Below, in pieces: positions 1 to 10,442 of a stretch of DNA of 28,118 bases. The notes beneath the pieces are model-generated. The model saw only the letters and a list, made by a program, of their open reading frames with translations. It searched no databases and was not told where the DNA came from. Each line of letters starts with the position of its first letter. The stretch's first letter is position 1. Where the stretch lies: the NCBI GenBank assembly GCA_027046625.1, contig JALTXX010000014.1:1-28118 (forward strand), in the 5' to 3' direction. The position numbers were made by a program, and so were the translations under genes. This DNA is from Candidatus Micrarchaeota archaeon (GTDB taxonomy: Archaea; Iainarchaeota; Iainarchaeia; JAADDC01).

Positions 1-4
1 GCAT

Positions 5-79
5 AGCGGGGTGGAGCAGCCTGGAGTGCTCGCCGGGCTCATAACCCGGAGGTCGGTGGTTCAAATCCACCCCCCGCTA
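5..79 (+). tRNA. tRNA-iMet (initiator, anticodon CAT)
   Basis: Cloverleaf AGCGGGG...CCCCGCT-A; anticodon CAT at 40-42; A1:U72 pair and GGG/CCC at the base of the anticodon stem (archaeal initiator hallmarks); GGTTCAAATCC T-arm; no encoded CCA. Confidence 0.97.
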
Positions 80-182
80 CTCTTTCTTTCTCCTCTGGGA
101 TCTCCCTTTGTTTAAAAACTCGGTTCACTCCCTGGTTCTGTCGGGGAGATGAATCTGAACCTGCCTCGCCTGGCCTCGCCAC
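39..182 (-). CDS. Putative N-terminal fragment of split integrase, Int(N), 47 aa
   Basis: GTG at 182 preceded by GAATAA-TTATAAA; reads MARPGEAGSDSSPRQNQGVNRVFKQREIPEEKERVAGGGFEPPTS through att, in the same phase relative to att as the integrase; stops at 39-41 inside the tRNA. Confidence 0.6.
   Translation of the reverse strand: MARPGEAGSDSSPRQNQGVNRVFKQREIPEEKERVAGGGFEPPTSGL
47..94. repeat. att site (left copy), 3' half of tRNA-iMet plus 15 nt downstream
   Basis: CGGAGGTCGGTGGTTCAAATCCACCCCCCGCTACTCTTTCTTTCTCCT is identical to 6986-7033 (48 bp; extends to 99/7038 with one mismatch). Confidence 0.97.
81..94 (+). terminator. Pyrimidine/T-rich tract after tRNA-iMet (likely terminator)
   Basis: TCTTTCTTTCTCCT directly after the tRNA 3' end; included in the att repeat. 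Confidence 0.45.
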
Positions 183-203
183 AGGAGAAATAACTCTTCC
201 TGG

Positions 204-216
204 TTTATAATTATTC
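204..216 (-). promoter_or_regulatory. BRE/TATA box upstream of Int(N)
   Basis: Minus strand GAATAA TTATAAA, about 22 nt before GTG at 182 (leaderless spacing). Confidence 0.55.
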
Positions 217-861
217 AGGGTGGTTCAGTTTGGATTTGAACCTGGCACATAAACTCAAATCTTCCAGCTCGAAGAACCCCTTGTAATCCACGATCTTTAT
301 ATTTGTCCTTTCTATCCCTAAATAGCCCTTTACCTTATCTATATTTTCTACAAAATCTTTCATACCTTGGTCCCTTGCCACTATATAAACTTCTTCTTTC
401 CTTTCTTGCTCCAAGACCAGAGCCGTTCCTATAACATAGAAGTCTGCGCTGTCCAACTGTACGGATCTCGATATGTTATCGTTAAGAAAGTTCTTTATCT
501 TCCTCTCAGCCACTGTTAATCCTACCTTTTTCTTCTTCTCGTGGAGGATGTTGTTTAGTTGGACCATCTTGCTAACAATTGCAAGAACCTTTGGGTCCTC
601 TTTGTCTCTCAGCAATCTCCACTCTTTCATGTACTTTACCCACTCGTAGGCCCTACTATCTCCATCGCTTATCGGTCCTTCCCTATTCCTTGAGCTGTAA
701 TAGTGGTTTTTCAGCTCTTCCCTCACCAATTCGTGGGAAAAGAACCTTCCATTTTTCATGAACTCCCTCTTGATAAAATCTGAGGCTTCGTTGCCTACCT
801 TTGGTGGTATTATCATCCCCAAGTCCCTCAGTCCGCTGGTATCCCAGACATAGATCCTCAC
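211..861 (-). CDS. PIN-domain protein (DUF4411-like), putative toxin/RNase
   Basis: PIN acidic motifs WDTS, VREEL, SADFYVIGTA, IVARD; GTG start overlaps the TAG stop of the upstream peptidase gene (TAGTG). Confidence 0.8.
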   Translation of the reverse strand: MRIYVWDTSGLRDLGMIIPPKVGNEASDFIKREFMKNGRFFSHELVREELKNHYYSSRNREGPISDGDSRAYEWVKYMKEWRLLRDKEDPKVLAIVSKMVQLNNILHEKKKKVGLTVAERKIKNFLNDNISRSVQLDSADFYVIGTALVLEQERKEEVYIVARDQGMKDFVENIDKVKGYLGIERTNIKIVDYKGFFELEDLSLCARFKSKLNHPE

Positions 862-1979
862 TATACCGTCCCCTCCAGCTTTTCTATCGTCTTTCCTCCA
901 ACGCCAAGGAGATTTTTCAATCTCAGTTCGTCGATCCGTCCCTTTCTGTAAAGATCTACGACTACCGCAACTGTTCTCTCGCCGAAGCTATTTATGGTAG
1001 ATCTTACCAAGTCTCTGGGTCCCTTCCTTTCTTCTTTCTTTTCTTCTATCTCTCCTACCTCCAATCCTGTTATTCCAAGCTTTCTTAATCTATAGAGAAG
1101 CACTGACATGCTGACCTTATACTTGGCCATCATCTTCTTCAGGAACTTCTTCTGATCTTTTGTCCCTCTTACCTTCTCTATCTCCTTATTTGTTTCCTCT
1201 GGAAGAAGGAAGTAGGCCGCAAATTCGTTGCACCACCTTTCTATCCTCCACTTTCTCTCCTCTTCATCTGGAACTTCGAGAAGATCGTCTTCATACACAT
1301 GTTCCCCAAGAAGGAGGTGTCCCAATTCATGACCTATGGTGAAAATAGTTCTTTGGATATGGGGATCTTTCCTGGCAATAATAACCCCTACACCGTATAC
1401 CTCATAGCTTATGCCGTCTATCTCCTCTGGTAGATCCCTTACTATGACTACCACTCCTCTCTCCCACAGCTTCTCCCTTAGAAAGTCTATCATATCCCTG
1501 AACTCCTTCATCTCATCTGTTTGTATCTTAAGGTCAAGGCCCAGCAAATTGCGTATTTCTCTTGCTACTTTCTTCGTCTCGTCCTCTAAACTAAACCGAG
1601 GGAGATTCATTTCTCCTATCACTCCCTCTTCTTTGAGAAGGAATACAAGGTCATTCGTCTCCATTATTACATCCAGCAAGTCTTCCTTTCTCTTCCTTTT
1701 CTTTTCCTTGCTCTTCTTCTCTCCTCGCCTCCTCCTGAAGTCTTTTATCATGAGAGGCTTGAGGTTTTCTTCGTTAAGGTCCATCAGCCTGATCATGGCA
1801 ATATTGAGTTTCTTTGAGATTGTCACCAGGGTGTTTGGGCTGATATATCCCCTCTTTATTCTCTCTATCTCGTCGCTTCGTATCCCGATTTCTCGTAGAC
1901 CCTCCTCTAACCCTTTTCCTCTCCTTTTCCCCACGAAGAAGGCAATCACCTTGGGGTTGACGGGTATCAATTCTTCCAT
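861..1979 (-). CDS. XRE-like HTH + ImmA/IrrE-family Zn metallopeptidase (putative antitoxin/sensor)
   Basis: HExxH motif FTIGHELGHLL followed by ERWCNEFAAYFLLP and KYKVS; N-terminal VNP...HTH-like region followed by DFRR. Confidence 0.9.
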   Translation of the reverse strand: MEELIPVNPKVIAFFVGKRRGKGLEEGLREIGIRSDEIERIKRGYISPNTLVTISKKLNIAMIRLMDLNEENLKPLMIKDFRRRRGEKKSKEKKRKRKEDLLDVIMETNDLVFLLKEEGVIGEMNLPRFSLEDETKKVAREIRNLLGLDLKIQTDEMKEFRDMIDFLREKLWERGVVVIVRDLPEEIDGISYEVYGVGVIIARKDPHIQRTIFTIGHELGHLLLGEHVYEDDLLEVPDEEERKWRIERWCNEFAAYFLLPEETNKEIEKVRGTKDQKKFLKKMMAKYKVSMSVLLYRLRKLGITGLEVGEIEEKKEERKGPRDLVRSTINSFGERTVAVVVDLYRKGRIDELRLKNLLGVGGKTIEKLEGTV

Positions 1980-2003
1980 CTCGATGAGTAATAAGGTAGT
2001 TTT

Positions 2004-2012
2004 CTTTATTAA
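2004..2012 (-). promoter_or_regulatory. TATA box for the peptidase-PIN operon
   Basis: Minus strand TTTAATAAA about 25 nt before ATG 1979; a near-identical box (CCATTTAATAAAG) lies at 4494-4506 upstream of the surface-protein gene. Confidence 0.5.
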
Positions 2013-3706
2013 AATGGAACGAAGGGGCCTGGCGAGGGATAAAATAATGGAGCTTTTATCTTTACTTCAAGGCCTTTTTCAGGCACATAGAACCCTGTTG
2101 ATCCTCTTTCAGACACATACCACGCATATACAAGGGCATGGGCAAGATCATCGCCAAGATCTTCGTTTAAACCATGGATTATAAATTTTCCACTCGGTGT
2201 TTGCTTTACACCAAGATTTAGAAGTTGGTGAATCAGTTTTGGGGCTTCTCTATAGGGAGGAAGGATGATCTTACCTGAGAGAAAAGCCTTTTTGAATTCT
2301 TTAAAAATGCGCGTCTTCTTTTCCAGGGAAGGGATTATCCTGAGTACCCTAAAACCTCTTTCTTCTAATTCTTCGGTCGGGGCCATACCAAGTCCTGCAT
2401 ACTCGCTCCCTACAGCTCTGAATCTGAATTTCCTGTCCAGCTCTTCTATCCTCCGAATCTGATGCTTAAAGCTCGTGTCGAGTATTTCTTCCAAATGTAC
2501 TACGCGGATCCTTCCCTCTTCTTTCTTCACCACAACAAGGGCCGTGGAATGGGATGTCCTTCCCCAGTCTATCCCAAGGTAAAATTCACCGTCCTTCAAG
2601 AAATCGGTCATCTTATAATCCTTGGTGGCCCTCCTGATCTCCTCCTCGCTAAGGAAATATGTAGAATCATCCACAAACTCGGCAAGTATTTCTCTTCTAA
2701 ACTCTATTTCCGTCATCTGCTTCCTGAACTCTCCTATCGTTTTCTCACTTACATATTTGTTTACCATTGTAGGATACTTAAGAACAGCGTACTCGCCTCC
2801 TGTAACGACCTGAAAGAACCTGTCCCGCGTACTTTTGGGTGTTGATATTGCTATGATTTTCCCTTCTCGTGAAGTGGCCACAAAAGGTATGACGACACTC
2901 CAAACCTCGTCTGGAATATAGGCTGCCTCCTCCAATATTACGATGTCTGCTCGTATTCCCCTAAGTAACTGCCCCCTATCCGTACAAGGAAAGGCTATAA
3001 TTTCGCTGTCATTCGTTAAAACGATCTTGTACTCGTTCTTTCGAGTAATTTTCTTTAATGAGTTTGCCAATATCCCAGATTTCACAATAAAGTTTATTAT
3101 TGTGTCAAAAAGGATCTTCGATTGACGGAGGGAAGGGCCTACTATAACTATCCTTATCCTTGGCGTCATGATCGCCTTTATAAGAGCATATAGAGCTACT
3201 GTGAAGGTCTTTCCGCTACCTCTACCCATTACAAGCGCGACCCGCTTCTTCTTTTCAAGTAAATCGAGTATTTCTCTCTGATACTCCTGAAGGTCTACCT
3301 TACAGACTTCCTCGGCAAAAAGTATCGGATCCTTTATCCATTTTCGTAGTTTCTCCTCCGTTATGTCTGTCTCTCCCCTTTCATCTTCTTGTCTACTTCC
3401 CTCACCCAATAATTCTGCTATACGCCTTGCTATATCAGTAGATCCTGTTCTTCTATCTATTTCTGGAGTTCGTTCTATGGACCTGGCTTGTCTAAGTTTA
3501 TATCTATAAACCACAAGCCGAATGGCAGTCTCGCTCTTTCCGAAGTATCTCGCAATCTCCTCATAACTCCTTCCTTCCTCTAAGAACTGTTTTATCTTAT
3601 CAATACGCTCTGGTGTCCAGAAAACCCTTCCCCTCGCCACATTAATAAATAACTGCTTGTTATCTATTAGTCCTCCCCTAAAAGAAACAAAAATTAAATG
3701 AAACAA
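2009..3706 (-). CDS. terL: Terminase large subunit (ATPase + RNase H-like nuclease) with N-terminal HTH; true start probably downstream (e.g. GTG 3640)
   Basis: Adenine-binding LQEYQ, Walker A MGRGSGKT, GPSLRQS, LRGIRAD, Walker B IVILEEAAY, coupling motif ISTP, FRREILAEF, nuclease GIDWG and GDDLAHAL; N-terminal WTPERIDKIKQF..GRSYEEIARYFGKSETAIR HTH. Confidence 0.9.
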   Translation of the reverse strand: MFHLIFVSFRGGLIDNKQLFINVARGRVFWTPERIDKIKQFLEEGRSYEEIARYFGKSETAIRLVVYRYKLRQARSIERTPEIDRRTGSTDIARRIAELLGEGSRQEDERGETDITEEKLRKWIKDPILFAEEVCKVDLQEYQREILDLLEKKKRVALVMGRGSGKTFTVALYALIKAIMTPRIRIVIVGPSLRQSKILFDTIINFIVKSGILANSLKKITRKNEYKIVLTNDSEIIAFPCTDRGQLLRGIRADIVILEEAAYIPDEVWSVVIPFVATSREGKIIAISTPKSTRDRFFQVVTGGEYAVLKYPTMVNKYVSEKTIGEFRKQMTEIEFRREILAEFVDDSTYFLSEEEIRRATKDYKMTDFLKDGEFYLGIDWGRTSHSTALVVVKKEEGRIRVVHLEEILDTSFKHQIRRIEELDRKFRFRAVGSEYAGLGMAPTEELEERGFRVLRIIPSLEKKTRIFKEFKKAFLSGKIILPPYREAPKLIHQLLNLGVKQTPSGKFIIHGLNEDLGDDLAHALVYAWYVSERGSTGFYVPEKGLEVKIKAPLFYPSPGPFVPF

Positions 3707-3722
3707 ATAAGTGAAACGCGCC

Positions 3723-4469
3723 TCACGAGACCCGCACCTTCCAGACTACTTCATCTCTCTGTTCAAAGGGGTTGGGATCCCATACAAACAGAATATCCTT
3801 CCCCCGTTGATCTCCATATTCTGTAACATCAAAGACTATGTAAGCTTCTGCTGAAGTTCCTGGAGCAAGTTTACTGATACTACTTTCTTTGGCATTCTTG
3901 TACTTTGCTTCACAGGACGACATCATAAACACAAAGCTCGGTGCACCAGGCTCTGGCTCAACAGTCTTTCCGTTAATTATTATGCTTGTATCCATATCGC
4001 CTATTATCCAGTTCTGGTATTCTGTACCTTTGTTTTCTGCTCCAACCTTTACAACGATGTAGTATTTCTTTTCGTTGGTAACAGAATTTACACATTCCTC
4101 AAATCTCGCGTTCTCTATCCACACACCTACACCGTCTTCCAAGACCCACTTTTTGTCAGACGAAAGTATACAGTCCTCGTCTATTAAGCCCGTACATCCA
4201 TCTGGACAAATACCGTCACTTGCTCCACATTCTGCCCTCGAACTCTGTGGTACCTCGTTATCCTGACCTTCAACGGTTTCTGCGTAAGATGAAGGCGCAT
4301 TTGATGTGGTTACCTGATTTTGTTCGGCAGAAAGAGTCTCTGCGTGTGATGTTGGCTTTTCTGGAGCCACCAAAGCCACCAGAATTGCCAACAAAATAAC
4401 AGCTCCTATTATTCCGATTATTATTCCAGCACCCAACTTCACTCCAGAGAGCAGAGACACCAACACCAC
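3723..4469 (-). CDS. Membrane-anchored surface protein, DUF4352-like beta-sandwich with Cys-rich linker
   Basis: N-terminal hydrophobic helix, low-complexity linker, CGASDGICPDGCTGLIDEDC, then YIVVKVGAENKG...KLAPGTSAEAYIVFDV pattern; GGAGGTG SD before the start. Confidence 0.7.
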   Translation of the reverse strand: MVLVSLLSGVKLGAGIIIGIIGAVILLAILVALVAPEKPTSHAETLSAEQNQVTTSNAPSSYAETVEGQDNEVPQSSRAECGASDGICPDGCTGLIDEDCILSSDKKWVLEDGVGVWIENARFEECVNSVTNEKKYYIVVKVGAENKGTEYQNWIIGDMDTSIIINGKTVEPEPGAPSFVFMMSSCEAKYKNAKESSISKLAPGTSAEAYIVFDVTEYGDQRGKDILFVWDPNPFEQRDEVVWKVRVS

Positions 4470-4584
4470 CTCCGATGAACATATAGTTCAAGACTTTATT
4501 AAATGGATATCACATCCTATAGTGAGATATATTTCACAAAAGTATTGCACAATATTTTAAGCAGATTAATTACAAGGATTATTT

Positions 4585-4833
4585 GTGCCGAGAACCATAC
4601 CAGACCTGGACGAACGAATTCTGGAACTTCTCGCAAAGGTAGACTGGCCAGTGACTACAGAGGAGGTAGCAAAAGCTCTGGGTGTGAGCTGGCAGACCGC
4701 ACATATCCATTTATTGAAGCTTGTAGCTGAAGGGAAGGTTAAGTACAAGAAGGTAGGAAGACAGAACCAATTCTGGTTAAGTGAAAAGTATAGGAAGGAG
4801 TTCAGTCACAGGAGAGAGGAAAGCTCTTTATGA
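4585..4833 (+). CDS. Small winged-HTH DNA-binding protein (element regulator or excisionase candidate)
   Basis: ILELL...TTEEVAKALGVSWQTAHIHLLKLVAEGKV..KKVGR..FW wHTH pattern; TTTTAA box about 24 nt upstream of GTG. Confidence 0.85.
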   Translation: MPRTIPDLDERILELLAKVDWPVTTEEVAKALGVSWQTAHIHLLKLVAEGKVKYKKVGRQNQFWLSEKYRKEFSHRREESSL

Positions 4834-6055
4834 CAGGACTCAGTTTCTGAGAAAAGAGCAGCTTTAGATAATTCACAGAGATCGTCTGGCCTAAATAGAT
4901 GGAGACGAAACCTAGTATGGTACGCAGAATATATTTGATGGGAAGAATACCCAGAACATCGAAGAACCTTTTATGATGAGTAAGAGATAGGGCGTTTACA
5001 AAGGCCCTGGAACAGAAAGAAACTTCGAGCTCTGGAACACCTTCAGATTTGTCTATGAAGATCTTGACAGGAGAGCCCAGAGGGTCGGTAGGATAAAGGG
5101 GAATTTGACCTGCTCCTGAGCGAGAGGTAGAGATATTGAAGAAATTTACTAGGGCGATTTCGATATTATGAGAGGCAGAGAAACGCACAGAGGGGTAAAA
5201 GGAGTGAGAAGAAGAACGAGTAGCTTGGTAGAGGAGGGAAGCTATCTTACCGAGAGATAAAGATATGAGATAGAAGACATCGTCGAGATGAAGAACGATC
5301 CGTTGGAGGGAGGAGGGAAGGTCGAGATCAGGATAGAGATGGACCCTAAAATAGATCTGGAAGGTTGTAACATAAGATTTATCCTTCTCCGACTTATGAG
5401 CGAGAATGTTGTGAGATTCGCGAATCTTTACATAAATACCATCAGGAAGAGTTAGCAGCCTTTCACGGTAAAGAACGATATTGTGGCCTTTAGAAGAGGT
5501 TTGTTGTTTTTGGATCGTAAAACCAATCCCAAGAAGCGTATCTACAACCTTTTCTACCCGTTTAGGATTTAGGTGGGCCCTAATAATAAAACTAAGATTG
5601 TGAAGCCTCATATATGGCTTCGTAGTAGGAAGAACAGCTCCAACTCCATCCGACATCTCCCCCAAACTAAGGAGGAGGGTATGGATATTGACCAATCTTT
5701 CGGCATCTACACGAACCATCCGAGAAGTGGAACCAATAAGGATACTCAAGCATCTCAGTAACTTCCAGAAACGATCTCTACTACTCTTGGATGTAAATAA
5801 AGACTTCAGACCTCTGAGATCCTTCTCTTTATCTATAACTTTTTCTGCTAATTTCCAGAAATAATCCGTCCTGATACTTATTATTTCCCGTCTAAGAGCA
5901 GTCTCCCTTAATCCTCTGGTATCACCAAACCAAGAGAGAGCAACCTTGTAAATCATACTAATATATAACTTTGCACGTTCTCTACTTAGGGACGTAGACC
6001 TTCTACAACTATCTATTATATCCATCTTCCCCAGAGATCGTTCCCATTGGACCAT
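4802..6055 (-). CDS. Orphan ~407-417 aa protein, candidate replication initiator (start may be ATG 6025)
   Basis: Long intact ORF overlapping the integrase 3' end; only unassigned large gene in the element; motif-like RLHN and FIDKSEGVPELE. Function inferred from context only. Confidence 0.5.
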   Translation of the reverse strand: MVQWERSLGKMDIIDSCRRSTSLSRERAKLYISMIYKVALSWFGDTRGLRETALRREIISIRTDYFWKLAEKVIDKEKDLRGLKSLFTSKSSRDRFWKLLRCLSILIGSTSRMVRVDAERLVNIHTLLLSLGEMSDGVGAVLPTTKPYMRLHNLSFIIRAHLNPKRVEKVVDTLLGIGFTIQKQQTSSKGHNIVLYRERLLTLPDGIYVKIRESHNILAHKSEKDKSYVTTFQIYFRVHLYPDLDLPSSLQRIVLHLDDVFYLISLSLGKIASLLYQATRSSSHSFYPSVRFSASHNIEIALVNFFNISTSRSGAGQIPLYPTDPLGSPVKIFIDKSEGVPELEVSFCSRAFVNALSLTHHKRFFDVLGILPIKYILRTILGFVSIYLGQTISVNYLKLLFSQKLSPVIKSFPLSCD

Positions 6056-6905
6056 ACAGAATATTGTGGTGATCTTGTATATTAGTCACGCCGTTGTTGA
6101 TAAACTTCATCTTTTGTATCAAACCCTTAATCTGTTCCTTCTTTGAAGAAAATCGTGAGAAAACATTATCAACGGCCGACCAAACAGTTTCCTTATCGGT
6201 AATATAGACATATTTTTCAAGTGATTTTATGGTTTTGTGGCCAGAAAATACCCGAAGAAGAAATACGTTTCCGTTGAATGCCTTCGCCATCATAGTTATT
6301 CCAGTCCTGCGTAGACTGTGGGTCCCCAGAACATAGAGGGGCTTCCCATTCTTGCTATAACCGTAGATCTTTACGAGTCCAGCCCTTTTAAGATAACGAT
6401 AAAACTTTGTTCGAGCAAAGTTATAGGTTATATGACCTTCTCCTTTGTCTCGCGGGAAGAGGTAGCCACCAGATAGCATTATTTTCTCTTTCCAACGAAG
6501 GATGTAGTCGTATAGTATCGGTATGAACTGCTTCGGGATCTTTTTCTCTACAACGCGTCTCGTTTTTCTTTCGTAAATTAAGACGGATTCCCTGTCTAAA
6601 TCAAGATTCTCAAGTTTTAGACCCACAACCTCTCCTATTCGAAGGGCCAAGTAAAGTTGCAAAGAGTACATCATGTAAAATCGCTCGTCGTCAATAACGG
6701 AAAAGAATCGTTCCAGTTCTTCAGGAGTAAATACCCTGTTAACACCATCGGAGAGTCTTTGCTTATTTTTCTCCCAACGCTCACGATAGATTTCTCTGTA
6801 TACTTTTGAGAGCTGCTTCATACGCTCGTGTGGAAGGTTCCAGAGAAACTCTTCCCATAGGGAGAGAAAATCTCGCCAGAGTATTTTAGTGTCGCCTATA
6901 AGCAC
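6009..6905 (-). CDS. int: Tyrosine recombinase/integrase (catalytic part; frame stays open upstream through att to 7049)
   Basis: LALRIGEVVGL (R), ERKT (K), HSLRRT (HxxR), SGHK, LEKY (Y); adjacent to the att repeat. Confidence 0.95.
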   Translation of the reverse strand: MLIGDTKILWRDFLSLWEEFLWNLPHERMKQLSKVYREIYRERWEKNKQRLSDGVNRVFTPEELERFFSVIDDERFYMMYSLQLYLALRIGEVVGLKLENLDLDRESVLIYERKTRRVVEKKIPKQFIPILYDYILRWKEKIMLSGGYLFPRDKGEGHITYNFARTKFYRYLKRAGLVKIYGYSKNGKPLYVLGTHSLRRTGITMMAKAFNGNVFLLRVFSGHKTIKSLEKYVYITDKETVWSAVDNVFSRFSSKKEQIKGLIQKMKFINNGVTNIQDHHNILYGPMGTISGEDGYNR

Positions 6906-6985
6906 ATACCCTTTACGGCCTATTCTCCTATATTGAATGCCAACGACTGGGACTGAACCAGAATGCTCTCCTTCTCTTCTCTCAA

Positions 6986-7033
6986 CGGAGGTCGGTGGTT
7001 CAAATCCACCCCCCGCTACTCTTTCTTTCTCCT
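6986..7033. repeat. att site (right copy), tRNA-iMet 3' fragment
   Basis: Identical to 47-94; lacks the 5' half of the tRNA, so it is not a tRNA gene. Confidence 0.97.
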
Positions 7034-7089
7034 TTGGGGTTTCTCTTTCTCACCTAAACTCCTTTTAAACCATCGGCCCATAGGGTAGC

Positions 7090-7617
7090 ATGGAAAGGGA
7101 GGTTCTTTCCCACCTCTATAATATCATAAGAGTTAGTTACTCTGACTACCCCTCCGTAAACGGTTTTCTGAGAGAGTTTGAACGAGAGCTTTGGAAAGCC
7201 GTAGATTCCAGAAATATACTAAAGTTTCTTACAAAGAATAAAATGGATGTGTTCGAGATCGGATCCATTAAAAGGATGGGCATACATCACAACGATAAAC
7301 TAATTCTTATCGAGCCAGGAGGCTTAGAGATAAAGTACACGGGGCTTGCAGAGGAGAACACCCCATACCTTAGAAATGAACACTCTACTAACGCTCTTCA
7401 CTTAGAAGGAGCAGCACACATCATCATAAGCGATAAGCATAATCACCTACATCTCCTGGAACTGTTTCCAAAGGATGGAAAGGTAGTATTTACTCCCCTT
7501 GTAGGAAAGGACACCATCCACCTAGAGAAGCCAAAGCCTATTCTTGCCCTTGTAAAGTATGGAGAACGGATTTATTCAGTAAAATTTCCTCATAAAGAAG
7601 CCAAACTACTGGTATGA
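7090..7617 (+). CDS. Hypothetical protein
   Basis: 175-aa ORF filling the gap between att and tRNA-Phe; TTTTAAA box about 20 nt upstream; no recognised motif. Confidence 0.7.
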   Translation: MEREVLSHLYNIIRVSYSDYPSVNGFLREFERELWKAVDSRNILKFLTKNKMDVFEIGSIKRMGIHHNDKLILIEPGGLEIKYTGLAEENTPYLRNEHSTNALHLEGAAHIIISDKHNHLHLLELFPKDGKVVFTPLVGKDTIHLEKPKPILALVKYGERIYSVKFPHKEAKLLV

Positions 7618-7691
7618 TGGGGCCGCGGGGATTCGAACCCCGGACACACCGGTCTTCAGCCGGTCGCTCTCCCGGGCTGAGCTACGGCCCC
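7618..7691 (-). tRNA. tRNA-Phe (GAA)
   Basis: Reverse complement GGGGCCGTAGCTCAGCCCGGGAGAGCGACCGGCTGAAGACCGGTGTGTCCGGGGTTCGAATCCCCGCGGCCCCA; anticodon at 7657-7655; TATATAAA about 26 nt upstream. Confidence 0.96.
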
Positions 7692-7718
7692 TCCAACATA
7701 CATGGAAAAGAAAAGTCT

Positions 7719-9623
7719 TTATATACGGAGGGAGTTGAAAGCCACTATTACTGTACTCAATGACATTATAAGGGCTGCTAGAGCAGGAGAAATAACAATA
7801 CCAGGTAATATACCCATAGCAGCAGGAATTGCAACAACATTATAGGATGCTGCCCAGAAAAGATTCTCCCACATCCTTCTTAAAGATTTTCTAGAAATGT
7901 ATATGAGTCTTGGTAGGGCAGAAATAGAGGATATAATTACATGAGCTGTATAAGCAGTTATTTCTGATCCTGTTGCAATTGCCACGCCTACATCAGCCTC
8001 TGCTAGTGCTGGTGCGTCATTAATACCGTCTCCTACCATCATAGTCTTTCCTCTTTTCTTAAACATCCTTACTATCTCCAGCTTTTCATGGGGCTTTACC
8101 TCAGCAAAATGACCATCAACCTTCAAATCCCTTGCATATTGCTCGGTAATCTCCTTCTTATCACCACTTATAATATATACTTCATAGCCCATATCCTTTA
8201 GACGGGCTACAATTTCTTTGGCATCATGGCGTATTACGTCCTTTAACTCTATATTTCCTACAACCTCCCCCTCTACAACTACATATATACCTGTATCGCT
8301 CTCAAGAGACCCAACATACACTTTCTTCCCCTCTACAACACCCTCTATTCCCTTCCCTGGTATAACCTTCACATCTCTGGCCTCGGGTATATCTAATCCT
8401 ATTTCCTCTGCCTTTTTGTAAATAGCTCTTCCTATAATGTGTTCTGAATACCTTTCCACTGCAGCTGCCAGCCTTAAACTCTTCTCATCATAACCTACAA
8501 CAACCGGCTTACCCTCCGTAAGTGTACCTGTCTTATCAAGTAGTATATACTTTACCTTAGGTGTCTCCTCCAAGGCTCTTCTATCCCTTAATACCACTCC
8601 GTCTCTTGCGAGTCTCGAGGTAGATATAGAAACTACCATAGGTATTGCAAGTCCTAACGCATGAGGACAAGAAATTACAAATACAGATATCATGCGCTCG
8701 ATTGCAAAAGTAAGGGATACTGGATACCATAGGATAAAGGAAATGATGCCAGCAGCCAACGAAACATAGAATAGCATACCTGCTGCCCTATCTGCAAGAT
8801 CTTGCACCTTTGTTCGGCTGGATAATGCCTCTTCAATGAGTTTTCTTACATGGTCTAAATAGGTATTACCAGAGGTGGCTTCTACCCTGACCTTGATTAC
8901 ACCATCAATATTCAGCTCTCCTCCTATTACTCTATCCCCTATCCTCCTAGTCTCCGGAATAGACTCACCCGTAACTATAGAAGCATCTACTCGCGTTTCT
9001 CCTTCCACAATAACACCATCCACCGGTATACGTTCTCCAACCTTAACTATCACCACATCCCCCACCCTCAAATTGTGGAGAGGTACATCTACCACCCTAT
9101 TACCCACAACTTTATGAGCGGTTGATGGAAGAAGATGCTGGAGTATGTTTAGCTCCTTCATAGCAGTAGATATGCTTTTTGCCTCTATCCAGTGGCCCAA
9201 CAACATTACAGTCACAAGGGTTGTAAGCTCCCAGAAAAAGTTTCCTCCAAACACTGAATAGATGAATGCAGATGTGATCGCAAAGGCTACCAATGTCATC
9301 ATACCGGGTCTTTTAGCTCTAATCTCCGATAGGGCACCTTCAAAGAAAGGCTTACCTCCGTAGAAGTATACAACAGATGAAAGGAGTGTTACCACTATCC
9401 ATTCAAATGGAATGTCCAGAATGTTTATTGGTCCAGAAAGTATCAGCACTGGTATTGTAAATATCAACGATACAAAGAAACGCTTCTTGAAGTCCTCTTC
9501 ATTGTGGTGGTGAGAGTGGTGAGAGTGATCGTGGTGGTGCTCTTTGTGTGGATGACAGTGTTCACACTCTTCCATATGTGATGTATGTTTCTCTGTATGC
9601 TCACAACAATGGTGGTGTTGCAT
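7719..9623 (-). CDS. copB: Copper-translocating P1B-type ATPase, CopB-like (P1B-3)
   Basis: His-rich N-terminus, TGES, CPHALGLAIP (CPH), DKTGTLT, SEH, GDGINDAPAL, YN and MSLSTVIV in the last helices; GGTGA SD. Confidence 0.93.
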   Translation of the reverse strand: MQHHHCCEHTEKHTSHMEECEHCHPHKEHHHDHSHHSHHHNEEDFKKRFFVSLIFTIPVLILSGPINILDIPFEWIVVTLLSSVVYFYGGKPFFEGALSEIRAKRPGMMTLVAFAITSAFIYSVFGGNFFWELTTLVTVMLLGHWIEAKSISTAMKELNILQHLLPSTAHKVVGNRVVDVPLHNLRVGDVVIVKVGERIPVDGVIVEGETRVDASIVTGESIPETRRIGDRVIGGELNIDGVIKVRVEATSGNTYLDHVRKLIEEALSSRTKVQDLADRAAGMLFYVSLAAGIISFILWYPVSLTFAIERMISVFVISCPHALGLAIPMVVSISTSRLARDGVVLRDRRALEETPKVKYILLDKTGTLTEGKPVVVGYDEKSLRLAAAVERYSEHIIGRAIYKKAEEIGLDIPEARDVKVIPGKGIEGVVEGKKVYVGSLESDTGIYVVVEGEVVGNIELKDVIRHDAKEIVARLKDMGYEVYIISGDKKEITEQYARDLKVDGHFAEVKPHEKLEIVRMFKKRGKTMMVGDGINDAPALAEADVGVAIATGSEITAYTAHVIISSISALPRLIYISRKSLRRMWENLFWAASYNVVAIPAAMGILPGIVISPALAALIMSLSTVIVAFNSLRI

Positions 9624-10315: not shown

Positions 10316-10337
10316 TATCCTATTCCATAATGGATGT

Positions 10338-10410
10338 GCGCCGGTAGTCTAGCCTGGTAGGACGTCGGCCTGCCACGCCGACGACCCGGGTTCGAATCCC
10401 GGCCGGCGCA
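10338..10410 (+). tRNA. tRNA-Gly (GCC)
   Basis: GCGCCGG...CCGGCGC-A acceptor stem; TCGGC-CTGCCAC-GCCGA anticodon arm (GCC at 10372-10374); GGTTCGAATCC. Confidence 0.96.
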
Positions 10411-10442
10411 TACTATTAAATCTATAGATCCCTGTTTTCTAT

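Follow-up and report, generated by a model that had tools for sequence, protein, structure and literature searches.

A candidate satellite of head-tailed viruses in a DPANN archaeon, integrated at a tRNA gene, with an HTH-terminase fusion as its only recognised virion-related gene

A 6.9 kb element integrated at a tRNA-Met gene was analyzed in the genome of an Iainarchaeota (DPANN) archaeon, within a 28,118 nt stretch of DNA (the window) that comprises positions 1–28,118 of contig C14 (45,342 nt) and starts at the end of that contig. The element is bounded by perfect direct repeats and carries an integrase and a large terminase protein (TerL) with an N-terminal helix-turn-helix (HTH) domain, and TerL is the only gene in it that is related to virions. 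The reading we favour, with a probability of about 0.5, is that of an integrative satellite that brings its own fused terminase, while a helper virus supplies procapsids and tails; the element cannot be an autonomous head-tailed virus. More tentatively, and at somewhat less than even odds, it would be an active, polymorphic member of a widespread and undescribed class of DPANN satellites of head-tailed viruses, in which the sole virion-related gene encodes a self-sufficient single-protein terminase, its TerL joined to a TerS-like HTH, that hijacks helper procapsids.

The element and its integration site

The host assembly consists of 18 contigs (652,019 nt, 94% completeness, about 44% GC), and the sequencing runs that contain the element are hydrothermal vent metagenomes. 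The left chromosomal flank lies outside the window and was found on contig C10. The features that define the element are as follows.

5–80, + strand: tRNA-Met (CAT), the integration target, intact at attL (ARAGORN; Rfam tRNA, 61.1 bits)
47–94, unstranded: attL core, a 48 nt perfect direct repeat made up of the last 34 nt of the tRNA and 14 further nt
2009–3640, − strand: HTH-TerL, 543 aa (P0001), with a likely GTG start at 3640; the open reading frame (ORF) is open to 3706
6009–6905, − strand: tyrosine integrase (PF00589, 1.4e-13, 51.4 bits, cut-off 27.1; phrog_1, 2.4e-26)
6986–7033, unstranded: attR core, identical to attL
7034–7086, unstranded: right chromosomal flank, also present directly after tRNA-Met at the end of C10

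The direct repeat can be followed over 63 nt (47–109 and 6986–7048, 94% identical) and is perfect in its first 48 nt, which confirms the 48 bp att repeats reported in a preliminary description of this DNA and places them in the 3' half of tRNA-Met. The start-to-start spacing of the repeats is 6,939 nt, corresponding to a unit of 6,939 bp, and the seven ORFs that lie between them are all open. The integrase gene is not split by the att site but ends 80 nt before attR, and it is the sole PF00589 match in the host genome. When aligned with the integrases of four relatives, R89, K114, H196, R199 and Y232 are invariant; with its catalytic R, K, HxxR and Y in place and a family score above the cut-off, the enzyme is as intact as had been claimed.

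Evidence for recent mobility

The 53 nt immediately to the right of the element (7034–7086) recur with 100% identity at C10:15331–15383 of the same assembly. The tail of C10 consists, in order, of the left chromosomal flank, a whole tRNA-Met gene, the 48 nt core and then the sequence of window positions 7034–7086. It is identical to window positions 6986–7086 over 101 nt, and differs from positions 1–99 by a single mismatch, at the first base after the core. The C10 tail is the sequence of an unoccupied attB, and because this empty site was assembled, the insertion is polymorphic, and the element is missing from some of the sampled population. For the C10 junction to have arisen from the occupied site alone, the assembler would have had to jump across the 48 nt repeat. 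Taken together, the data support an element that is intact, bounded and recently mobile.

In the unitigs of run X1, the depth of the element is 6–13 and that of the right flank 14–18, which is a weak hint of polymorphism only. Pieces of the element without any differences also occur, at low depth, in X2, a second sample of the same study. The Logan contigs of runs X1–X3 break at the att core and show neither an empty-site nor a circle joint at the right coordinates; one contig that appeared to skip from 1152 to 7618 was judged spurious, with one side of just 22 nt. A DNA search with the right flank for a syntenic empty site in 13 relatives of the host family returned almost exclusively tRNA-like matches, from which no such site could be read.

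These observations bear on the possibility that the element is the decaying remnant of a provirus, from which the structural genes have been deleted and TerL, integrase and att sites left by chance. Its perfect att repeats, intact integrase and seven open ORFs speak against such decay, and an empty site in the same population indicates recent mobility. Further evidence on both sides comes from the relatives of its terminase, described below.

The terminase

TerL comprises an HTH domain (approximately residues 8–60), a linker, an ATPase domain (Walker A GRGSGKT, Walker B VILEE) and an RNase H-like nuclease domain (D358, E413, D497–D498). It matches Terminase_6N (2.3e-11, 44.2 bits, cut-off 22), Terminase_6C (4e-6, 27.3 bits, cut-off 22.6) and phrog_2 (6.8e-48), and, among proteins of known structure in the Protein Data Bank, the TerL ATPase of P74-26 (1.6e-9), T4 gp17 (5.8e-8) and the nuclease 5tge (7.9e-5), as well as the nuclease 5m1f. 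The HTH domain has weak matches to GcrA and to sigma-70 region 4. In an alignment of 14 TerLs, the Walker A lysine (K144), the catalytic glutamate (E238), D358 and D497–D498 are invariant, and E413 aligns with an Asp of the other proteins. This is the only TerL in the host genome, and its closest homologue (P0002) is 87% identical and intact. The protein is a genuine TerL and, judged by its residues, looks active. Two earlier claims, of an intact terminase and of an HTH fused to it, thus stand, since both terminase domains score above the Pfam cut-offs, the ATPase and nuclease motifs are kept, and the HTH lies at the N-terminus.

Absence of virion genes from the element and the host genome

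No capsid or portal protein was found among the ORFs of the element by Pfam or PHROG or, for the model of orf417, by Foldseek, leaving TerL as the only virion-related gene. The whole host genome (652 kb) likewise gave no match to PF05065, PF04860, a capsid profile of the phylum, a portal profile or two portal proteins. As a positive control, the same PHROG scans readily detected the portal (1.2e-51) and the capsid protein (5.8e-62) of an Iainarchaeota provirus, and the earlier statement that the element is without recognisable capsid or portal genes is upheld by these searches of both element and genome. The element therefore lacks the HK97-fold capsid and portal of a Caudoviricetes provirus, and, at 6.9 kb with seven ORFs, it has no room for the head genes of a capsid-forming phage-inducible chromosomal island (cf-PICI). 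It shares two features with PICI-like satellites, being an att-bounded island with its own integrase and having no virion structural genes.

A complete minimal virus, in which orf417, orf248 or both would be structural proteins of a new type, is a highly improbable explanation. Neither of these two ORFs has an assigned function, and the structural model of orf417 is too poor to exclude a fold. Against this, a virus would need at least portal and capsid proteins, and as a rule a protease or scaffold too, for which there is no room in 6.9 kb, and to our knowledge TerL motors occur only together with portals and HK97-type capsids. A hidden HK97 or portal fold, which the preliminary description had suggested looking for, was not found when the orf417 model was searched with Foldseek, and the PHROG scans are ones that detect the viral portal and capsid of this phylum.

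Related terminases across the phylum

A survey of 215 genomes of the phylum (E ≤ 1e-5) found TerL in 12. It stands beside portal and capsid genes in two of these and, in the other 10, in small islands, most of which have an integrase; the searches found neither capsid nor portal in the genomes of these 10. Capsid-less terminase elements thus outnumber true proviruses in Iainarchaeota genomes by 10 to 2. The TerLs fall into the following groups.

Window family: the window, P0002 (87% identity) and P0003/P0033 (43%); gene context was read for L118, a copy of the P0003 type
Group A, 6 genomes (L014–L018, L028): HTH-TerL of about 520 aa, 66–91% mutual identity, six taxonomic families, about 32% identity to the window TerL
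Group B, 2 genomes (L019, L020): true proviruses, in which a TerL lacking the HTH precedes portal (phrog_18178, 1.2e-51) and capsid (phrog_24667, 5.8e-62)
Group C, 3 genomes (L021–L023): a 160 aa protein and TerL, with an integrase within a few kb

Of the 215 genomes, both members of group B and no others matched the capsid profile. Seven genomes matched the portal profile, three of them strongly (both of group B, and one with a partial portal and no TerL match); the remaining four matches are short (37–56 aa), and none is in the 10 genomes with capsid-less TerL. In group B, the portal is fused to a minor-head/morphogenesis domain, giving a protein of about 760 aa (L019:5564–7849, L020:11571–13862).

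The neighbours of the group A TerLs (54 proteins at 5 loci) include three integrases, winged-helix (wHTH) regulators, three 23S-IVS/Avd-like proteins and a D5 primase-helicase, which at L015 adjoins TerL, along with HicA, an Mrr-SNF2-HNH protein, a radical SAM enzyme and DUF4238. The matches listed, which are the best 25 of 52 for Pfam and the best 25 of 32 for PHROG, include no family of head, portal or tail proteins; the other 7 PHROG matches have E-values above 8e-5, provided that the ranking is by member count first and by E-value second. Cargo beside these TerLs, such as the Mrr-SNF2-HNH fusion, the B12-binding radical SAM enzyme and DUF4238 (L016:12257–14857, L017:7583–9205, L018:9828–10805), varies between loci although the TerLs are 76–91% identical.

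Several relatives show the boundaries of integrated elements. L015 is bounded by a 31 nt repeat at tRNA-Ser and spans 12,663 nt, L017 has a 26 nt repeat with copies 11,356 nt apart, and L018 has several att copies at tRNA-Arg. In the last case, the 3' end of the tRNA is repeated at 3111, 3130, 10878, 11390 and 12171 (within L018:3111–12197), a pattern that points to an element of some 7.7 kb with two short att-bounded remnants behind it, and so to a single site used more than once. The contig of L018 (L029) is titled 'Chloroflexi bacterium' while its genome is placed in the archaeal phylum of the window, likely a labelling or binning conflict. At both L028 and L118, the integrase gene immediately precedes HTH-TerL and host genes adjoin; at L118, the one locus retrieved from the JGI metagenomes, the integrase (437 aa) lies between HTH-TerL and a host gene that, from its sequence, we take to be GatA-like. 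A nanohaloarchaeal locus (L030) has the order integrase fragment, wHTH, TerL.

In group C, the 160 aa protein, which has no family match, overlaps a 414 aa TerL, and the integrase is 4–6 kb away (L021:7536–9228, L022:9852–11544, L023:9611–11303). The 160 aa protein is a possible small terminase. The 44 neighbouring proteins include integrases, transposases and one weak 'virion structural protein' match (5.7e-5), and no capsid or portal, so that group C looks like another capsid-less terminase island.

Independent elements with an integrase and HTH-TerL and no virion genes therefore exist (group A, L028 among them, and L118); a lack of independent elements was one of the refuting outcomes named in the preliminary description. 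None of the relatives turned out to be a full provirus that could have given rise to the element by deletion, in a comparison that covered relatives other than the two closest, P0002 (on a 3.3 kb contig) and P0033 (on a 30 kb contig), whose gene contexts lie outside it.

Selection on TerL and its ancestry

For the TerL genes of L017 and L018, dN/dS is 0.087. Synonymous sites are saturated in the other 14 group A pairs (pS 0.76–0.88), for which pN is 0.15–0.25. On these values, TerL is maintained by selection in capsid-less elements. Relaxed selection on terL had been named earlier as a sign of decay, and purifying selection was found instead; the measurement applies to the group A TerLs, with the window's own TerL outside the comparison. 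All TerLs of group A and L030 (e.g. L017:6084–7640) share two departures from the usual motifs, a Walker A ending in GKD (not GKT/S) and a Walker B with N-E (not D-E). Both are conserved throughout, in a protein under strong purifying selection, and the metal site may have undergone a compensated change.

A quick maximum-likelihood tree of 40 TerLs (SH-aLRT support only, midpoint root) recovered a clade of 13 (SH-aLRT 96) with the window family, group A, L030, L032, L043 and L045. The last three are Thermoplasmata-binned or IMG/VR contigs, and their TerLs (534–558 aa) also have an HTH-like N-terminus. L045 has genes for a head protease and a capsid protein, together with a minor tail protein and a tape-measure-like protein, and in L043 the portal directly follows TerL; in neither is there a small ORF in front of TerL. 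The phylogeny that had been proposed as a check accordingly groups the N-extended TerLs in one clade with those of head-tailed viruses. The linkers of the viral and DPANN extensions can be aligned (hhalign 74%, E 2.8e-5, 47 columns), whereas no alignment was obtained with hhalign for the HTH proper. We infer that the N-terminal extension probably replaces the small terminase subunit.

The descent of this TerL from viral TerLs and the presence of true proviruses in the phylum are what would be expected if the element were the remnant of a provirus; the two orphan ORFs, the possible debris in the 3' third of orf417 and in the purine-rich stretch 4834–5450, and the frameshift in L030 also fit. 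However, the capsid-less state is found in 10 of the 12 TerL-bearing genomes, in att-bounded units of 7–13 kb, the HTH-TerL family of cellular genomes is always without capsid genes, and TerL is under purifying selection in the capsid-less relatives. Given the intactness of the element, its polymorphism and a design that recurs under selection, a decaying remnant is disfavoured and we consider it quite improbable.

Other genes of the element

The remaining features of the element are listed here.

211–861, − strand: orf216, an orphan whose start overlaps the stop of orf372 by 1 nt
861–1979, − strand: orf372, XRE-type HTH and M78 (ImmA/IrrE-like) metallopeptidase with HELGH motif (PF06114, 3.5e-14)
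3723–4469, − strand: orf248, with an N-terminal membrane anchor, a Ser/Thr/Gln-rich linker, a Cys-rich stretch and a beta-rich C-terminal domain
4470–4584, unstranded: divergent AT-rich intergenic region that separates the wHTH gene from the orf248-TerL operon (GC 0.30 in 4501–4600)
4585–4833, + strand: wHTH, an 82 aa winged-helix protein (FaeA, 5.1e-8; HTH_24, 7.2e-6)
4802–6055, − strand: orf417, an orphan; residues 150–245 are predicted to form a confident beta-sheet/helix domain

The peptidase and wHTH genes of the preliminary description were both recovered, the former as orf372, an HTH joined to Peptidase_M78, and the latter through the winged-helix families FaeA and HTH_24. orf372 also matches phrog_2439 (6.5e-36) and, in PADLOC, 14 RmrA models (best 2.5e-17) and capP (5.5e-18); a match to the spr1629 repressor/antitoxin of NCBIfam (6.4e-16) is below the cut-off. 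Its partner orf216 had no match in Pfam, PHROG, PADLOC or NCBIfam, and a search of 5.8 billion proteins returned only itself. The protein language model ESM gave weak leads to PIN clusters (0.89–0.90), and the AlphaFold2 model is unusable (pLDDT 40). An N-terminal VWDTSGL motif, which we presume to be PIN-like, and these leads point weakly to a possible PIN-like nuclease that could be the toxin partner of orf372. From their sequences, the two look like a toxin-antitoxin or abortive-infection pair, possibly of the RmrA/RmrT type (RosmerTA), and an ImmA/ImmR-like induction switch would fit equally well. Of the defence module proposed earlier, then, the two-gene RmrA-like arrangement resembling a toxin-antitoxin pair was found, while the toxin side fits less well, as orf216 has no toxin family; its naming as a PIN protein keeps the language-model leads but neither a family match nor a homologue.

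orf248 matches phrog_806 (2.5e-6) over residues 131–217, while a match to Wzz covers the hydrophobic N-terminus only and is below the cut-off; it is plausibly a surface protein. The intergenic region that follows is a likely control region. The wHTH has weak matches to excisionases (TIGR01764, 2.6e-4; phrog_4691, 6.6e-3) and may be a regulator or an excisionase-like recombination directionality factor.

No relatives of orf417 were found in 5.8 billion clustered proteins or in 1.84 billion representatives (word-index search and exhaustive HMMER); two additional matches were repeat proteins and judged spurious. The pLDDT of its AlphaFold2 model is 45 overall, 74–85 for residues 160–200 and below 40 for residues 281–417, and Foldseek gave generic helix-grip-like matches only (TM 0.17), with no HK97 or portal fold. 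ESM gave a recognition value of 1457 and weak leads to Phage_CRI and Rep_trans at 0.90, on which orf417 is a candidate replication protein, possibly similar to rolling-circle Rep. Its codon score (-0.045) is the lowest in the element. The + strand is 57–72% purine at 4600–5450, placing the 3' third of orf417 on the pyrimidine-rich strand, and the coding quality of that third (4802–5215) is doubtful. A gene on the + strand beneath it was considered and rejected, as stops occur throughout all three + frames. A 36 nt imperfect repeat (5206–5241 and 5285–5320) is present at 4834–5450, antisense to the 3' third of orf417, and this stretch could be non-coding (perhaps an origin or packaging site) rather than protein-coding. 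The earlier statement that no pseudogene debris is visible in the element is therefore not entirely secure for 4834–5450.

The adjacent defence-like pair raises the possibility that the element is an integrative plasmid-like element or a defence island, and its TerL-like enzyme not a packaging enzyme for the element. The enzyme might then block the portal or cut the concatemers of an invading head-tailed virus, or it might process the element's own replication intermediates. Not only does the RmrA-like/toxin pair adjoin TerL, but the neighbours of related TerLs are rich in cargo of the defence type (HicA, Mrr-SNF2-HNH and DUF4238), the group A motifs (GKD and N-E) are non-canonical and yet strongly conserved, and no helper was found in the host family. 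On the other hand, the window TerL has a canonical Walker A, the catalytic Glu and the nuclease residues, it clusters with TerLs of real viruses, and PADLOC finds only faint helicase-like matches to it (2.8e-4). Interference with a helper and packaging of one's own DNA are, moreover, compatible in known satellites. We regard this explanation as unlikely.

Surroundings of the element

Rfam found no RNA families in 1–7700 beyond two tRNAs. Near the insertion site are genes for tRNA-Phe and tRNA-Gly (7618–7691 and 10337–10411), and adjoining it (7719–9623) is an ORF for a 634 aa protein whose N-terminus is rich in His and which, from its sequence only, is called P-type ATPase-like. In contig C3, close to its end (about 72,500–73,500), a crude repeat scan of the host genome flagged a CRISPR-like array. 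No spacer-like match to the element was found elsewhere in the host genome.

Proposed life cycle of the satellite

As an integrative satellite with its own terminase, the element might function as follows. The HTH-M78 protein would be a switch that senses infection or stress, and the integrase, perhaps with the 82 aa wHTH protein, would excise the element as a circle, which would then multiply, possibly by means of orf417. The fused HTH-TerL would act as a one-protein terminase, its HTH recognising the element's own DNA, its nuclease cutting concatemers and its motor docking on the portals of procapsids that a head-tailed helper virus produces while infecting the same cell. Since the element has no gene for remodelling capsid size, several 6.9 kb units would be packed per head. 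orf372 and orf216 would be cargo of the toxin-antitoxin or abortive-infection type.

A number of points weigh against this reading. No helper virus was identified, and the searches of the host genome itself turned up neither capsid nor portal; the 13 other genomes of the host family also gave no match to TerL, capsid or portal. A foreign TerL must fit the portal of its helper, 6.9 kb is far below normal head capacity, and we know of no satellite with TerL as its only virion-related gene. The attP or circle junction was seen neither in the assembly nor in the run contigs, so that of the two junctions earlier suggested as checks on excision the contig data yielded one, the empty attB on C10. The depth of the element shows no excess over that of the flank. 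Within the element, no pac or cos site was identified and a scan for iterons gave none that was convincing, and no replication gene (primase/helicase or Rep) was recognised in the window. The Walker B of the window TerL is E-E where D-E is usual, and the GKD and N-E motifs of the closest capsid-less relatives are unusual for a motor. In L030, the HTH part is not in the same frame as the ATPase part. IMG/VR contained neither a full-length HTH-TerL of the window family nor an exact 38-mer of the element.

Comparison with known satellites and viruses

[quoted passage not shown] PICIs carry the small terminase gene (TerS) or none, and use the TerL of the helper. The element, unlike PICIs, brings the whole enzyme as HTH-TerL, resides in an archaeal host and has no recognised primase or replication module. 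The cf-PICIs have genes for capsid, portal and other head proteins besides TerS and TerL, and rely on the helper for tails alone, whereas the element is without capsid, portal and head proteins. They are satellites that, according to the accessible part of the source, encode their own TerL (10.1101/2022.09.08.507074). PICMIs are likewise described, in the accessible text, as lacking capsid-remodelling genes (PMC10803314).

The archaeal satellites known earlier are, according to the accessible text of a 2025 preprint, only pSSVi and pSSVx, both of spindle-shaped viruses, to which that preprint added further spindle-virus satellites (10.1101/2025.02.15.638363). Its haloarchaeal and nanohaloarchaeal SRCEs carry a partial morphogenetic module, a capsid protein or an ATPase (10.1101/2025.02.15.638363). 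NMV2S is a putative Asgard satellite linked to a siphovirus, and the accessible part of the 2026 preprint mentions no terminase (10.64898/2026.08.12.739948). As far as these texts go, all are, like the element, small archaeal elements proposed to use helper particles; pSSVx, pSSVi and the SRCEs differ in being satellites of spindle-shaped viruses with plasmid replication modules and AAA+ ATPases, and none of the set, NMV2S included, is presented there as a tRNA-integrated island with TerL alone.

Among viruses, the L019 and L020 proviruses and the L043 and L045 viral contigs have TerLs homologous to that of the element (25–28% identity), and L043 and L045 also share its N-terminal extension and TerL clade. 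All four carry portal, capsid, protease and tail genes by TerL, and the element none. A mirror image is offered by small HK97 'twilight-zone' elements, possible satellites that, in the accessible text, have an integrase, a capsid protein and a scaffold, and no terminase or portal (PMC13669383); these have a capsid gene without packaging genes, and the element a packaging enzyme without a capsid gene. In full-text searches of the literature, no description was found of TerL-only integrative elements, or of similarly organised satellites of archaeal head-tailed viruses.

Significance

The combination of an integrase and HTH-TerL between att sites, without a portal or capsid gene, provides a search rule for further elements of this kind, and, with an empty site assembled, excision and transfer can be tested directly in vent metagenomes that already exist. 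If the satellite reading is true, the fused protein would be a natural one-protein terminase for biochemistry, and the element would represent a new way to parasitise head-tailed viruses, with a whole packaging enzyme and nothing else. DPANN archaea themselves depend on host cells, and such satellites would add a further layer of parasitism in these organisms.

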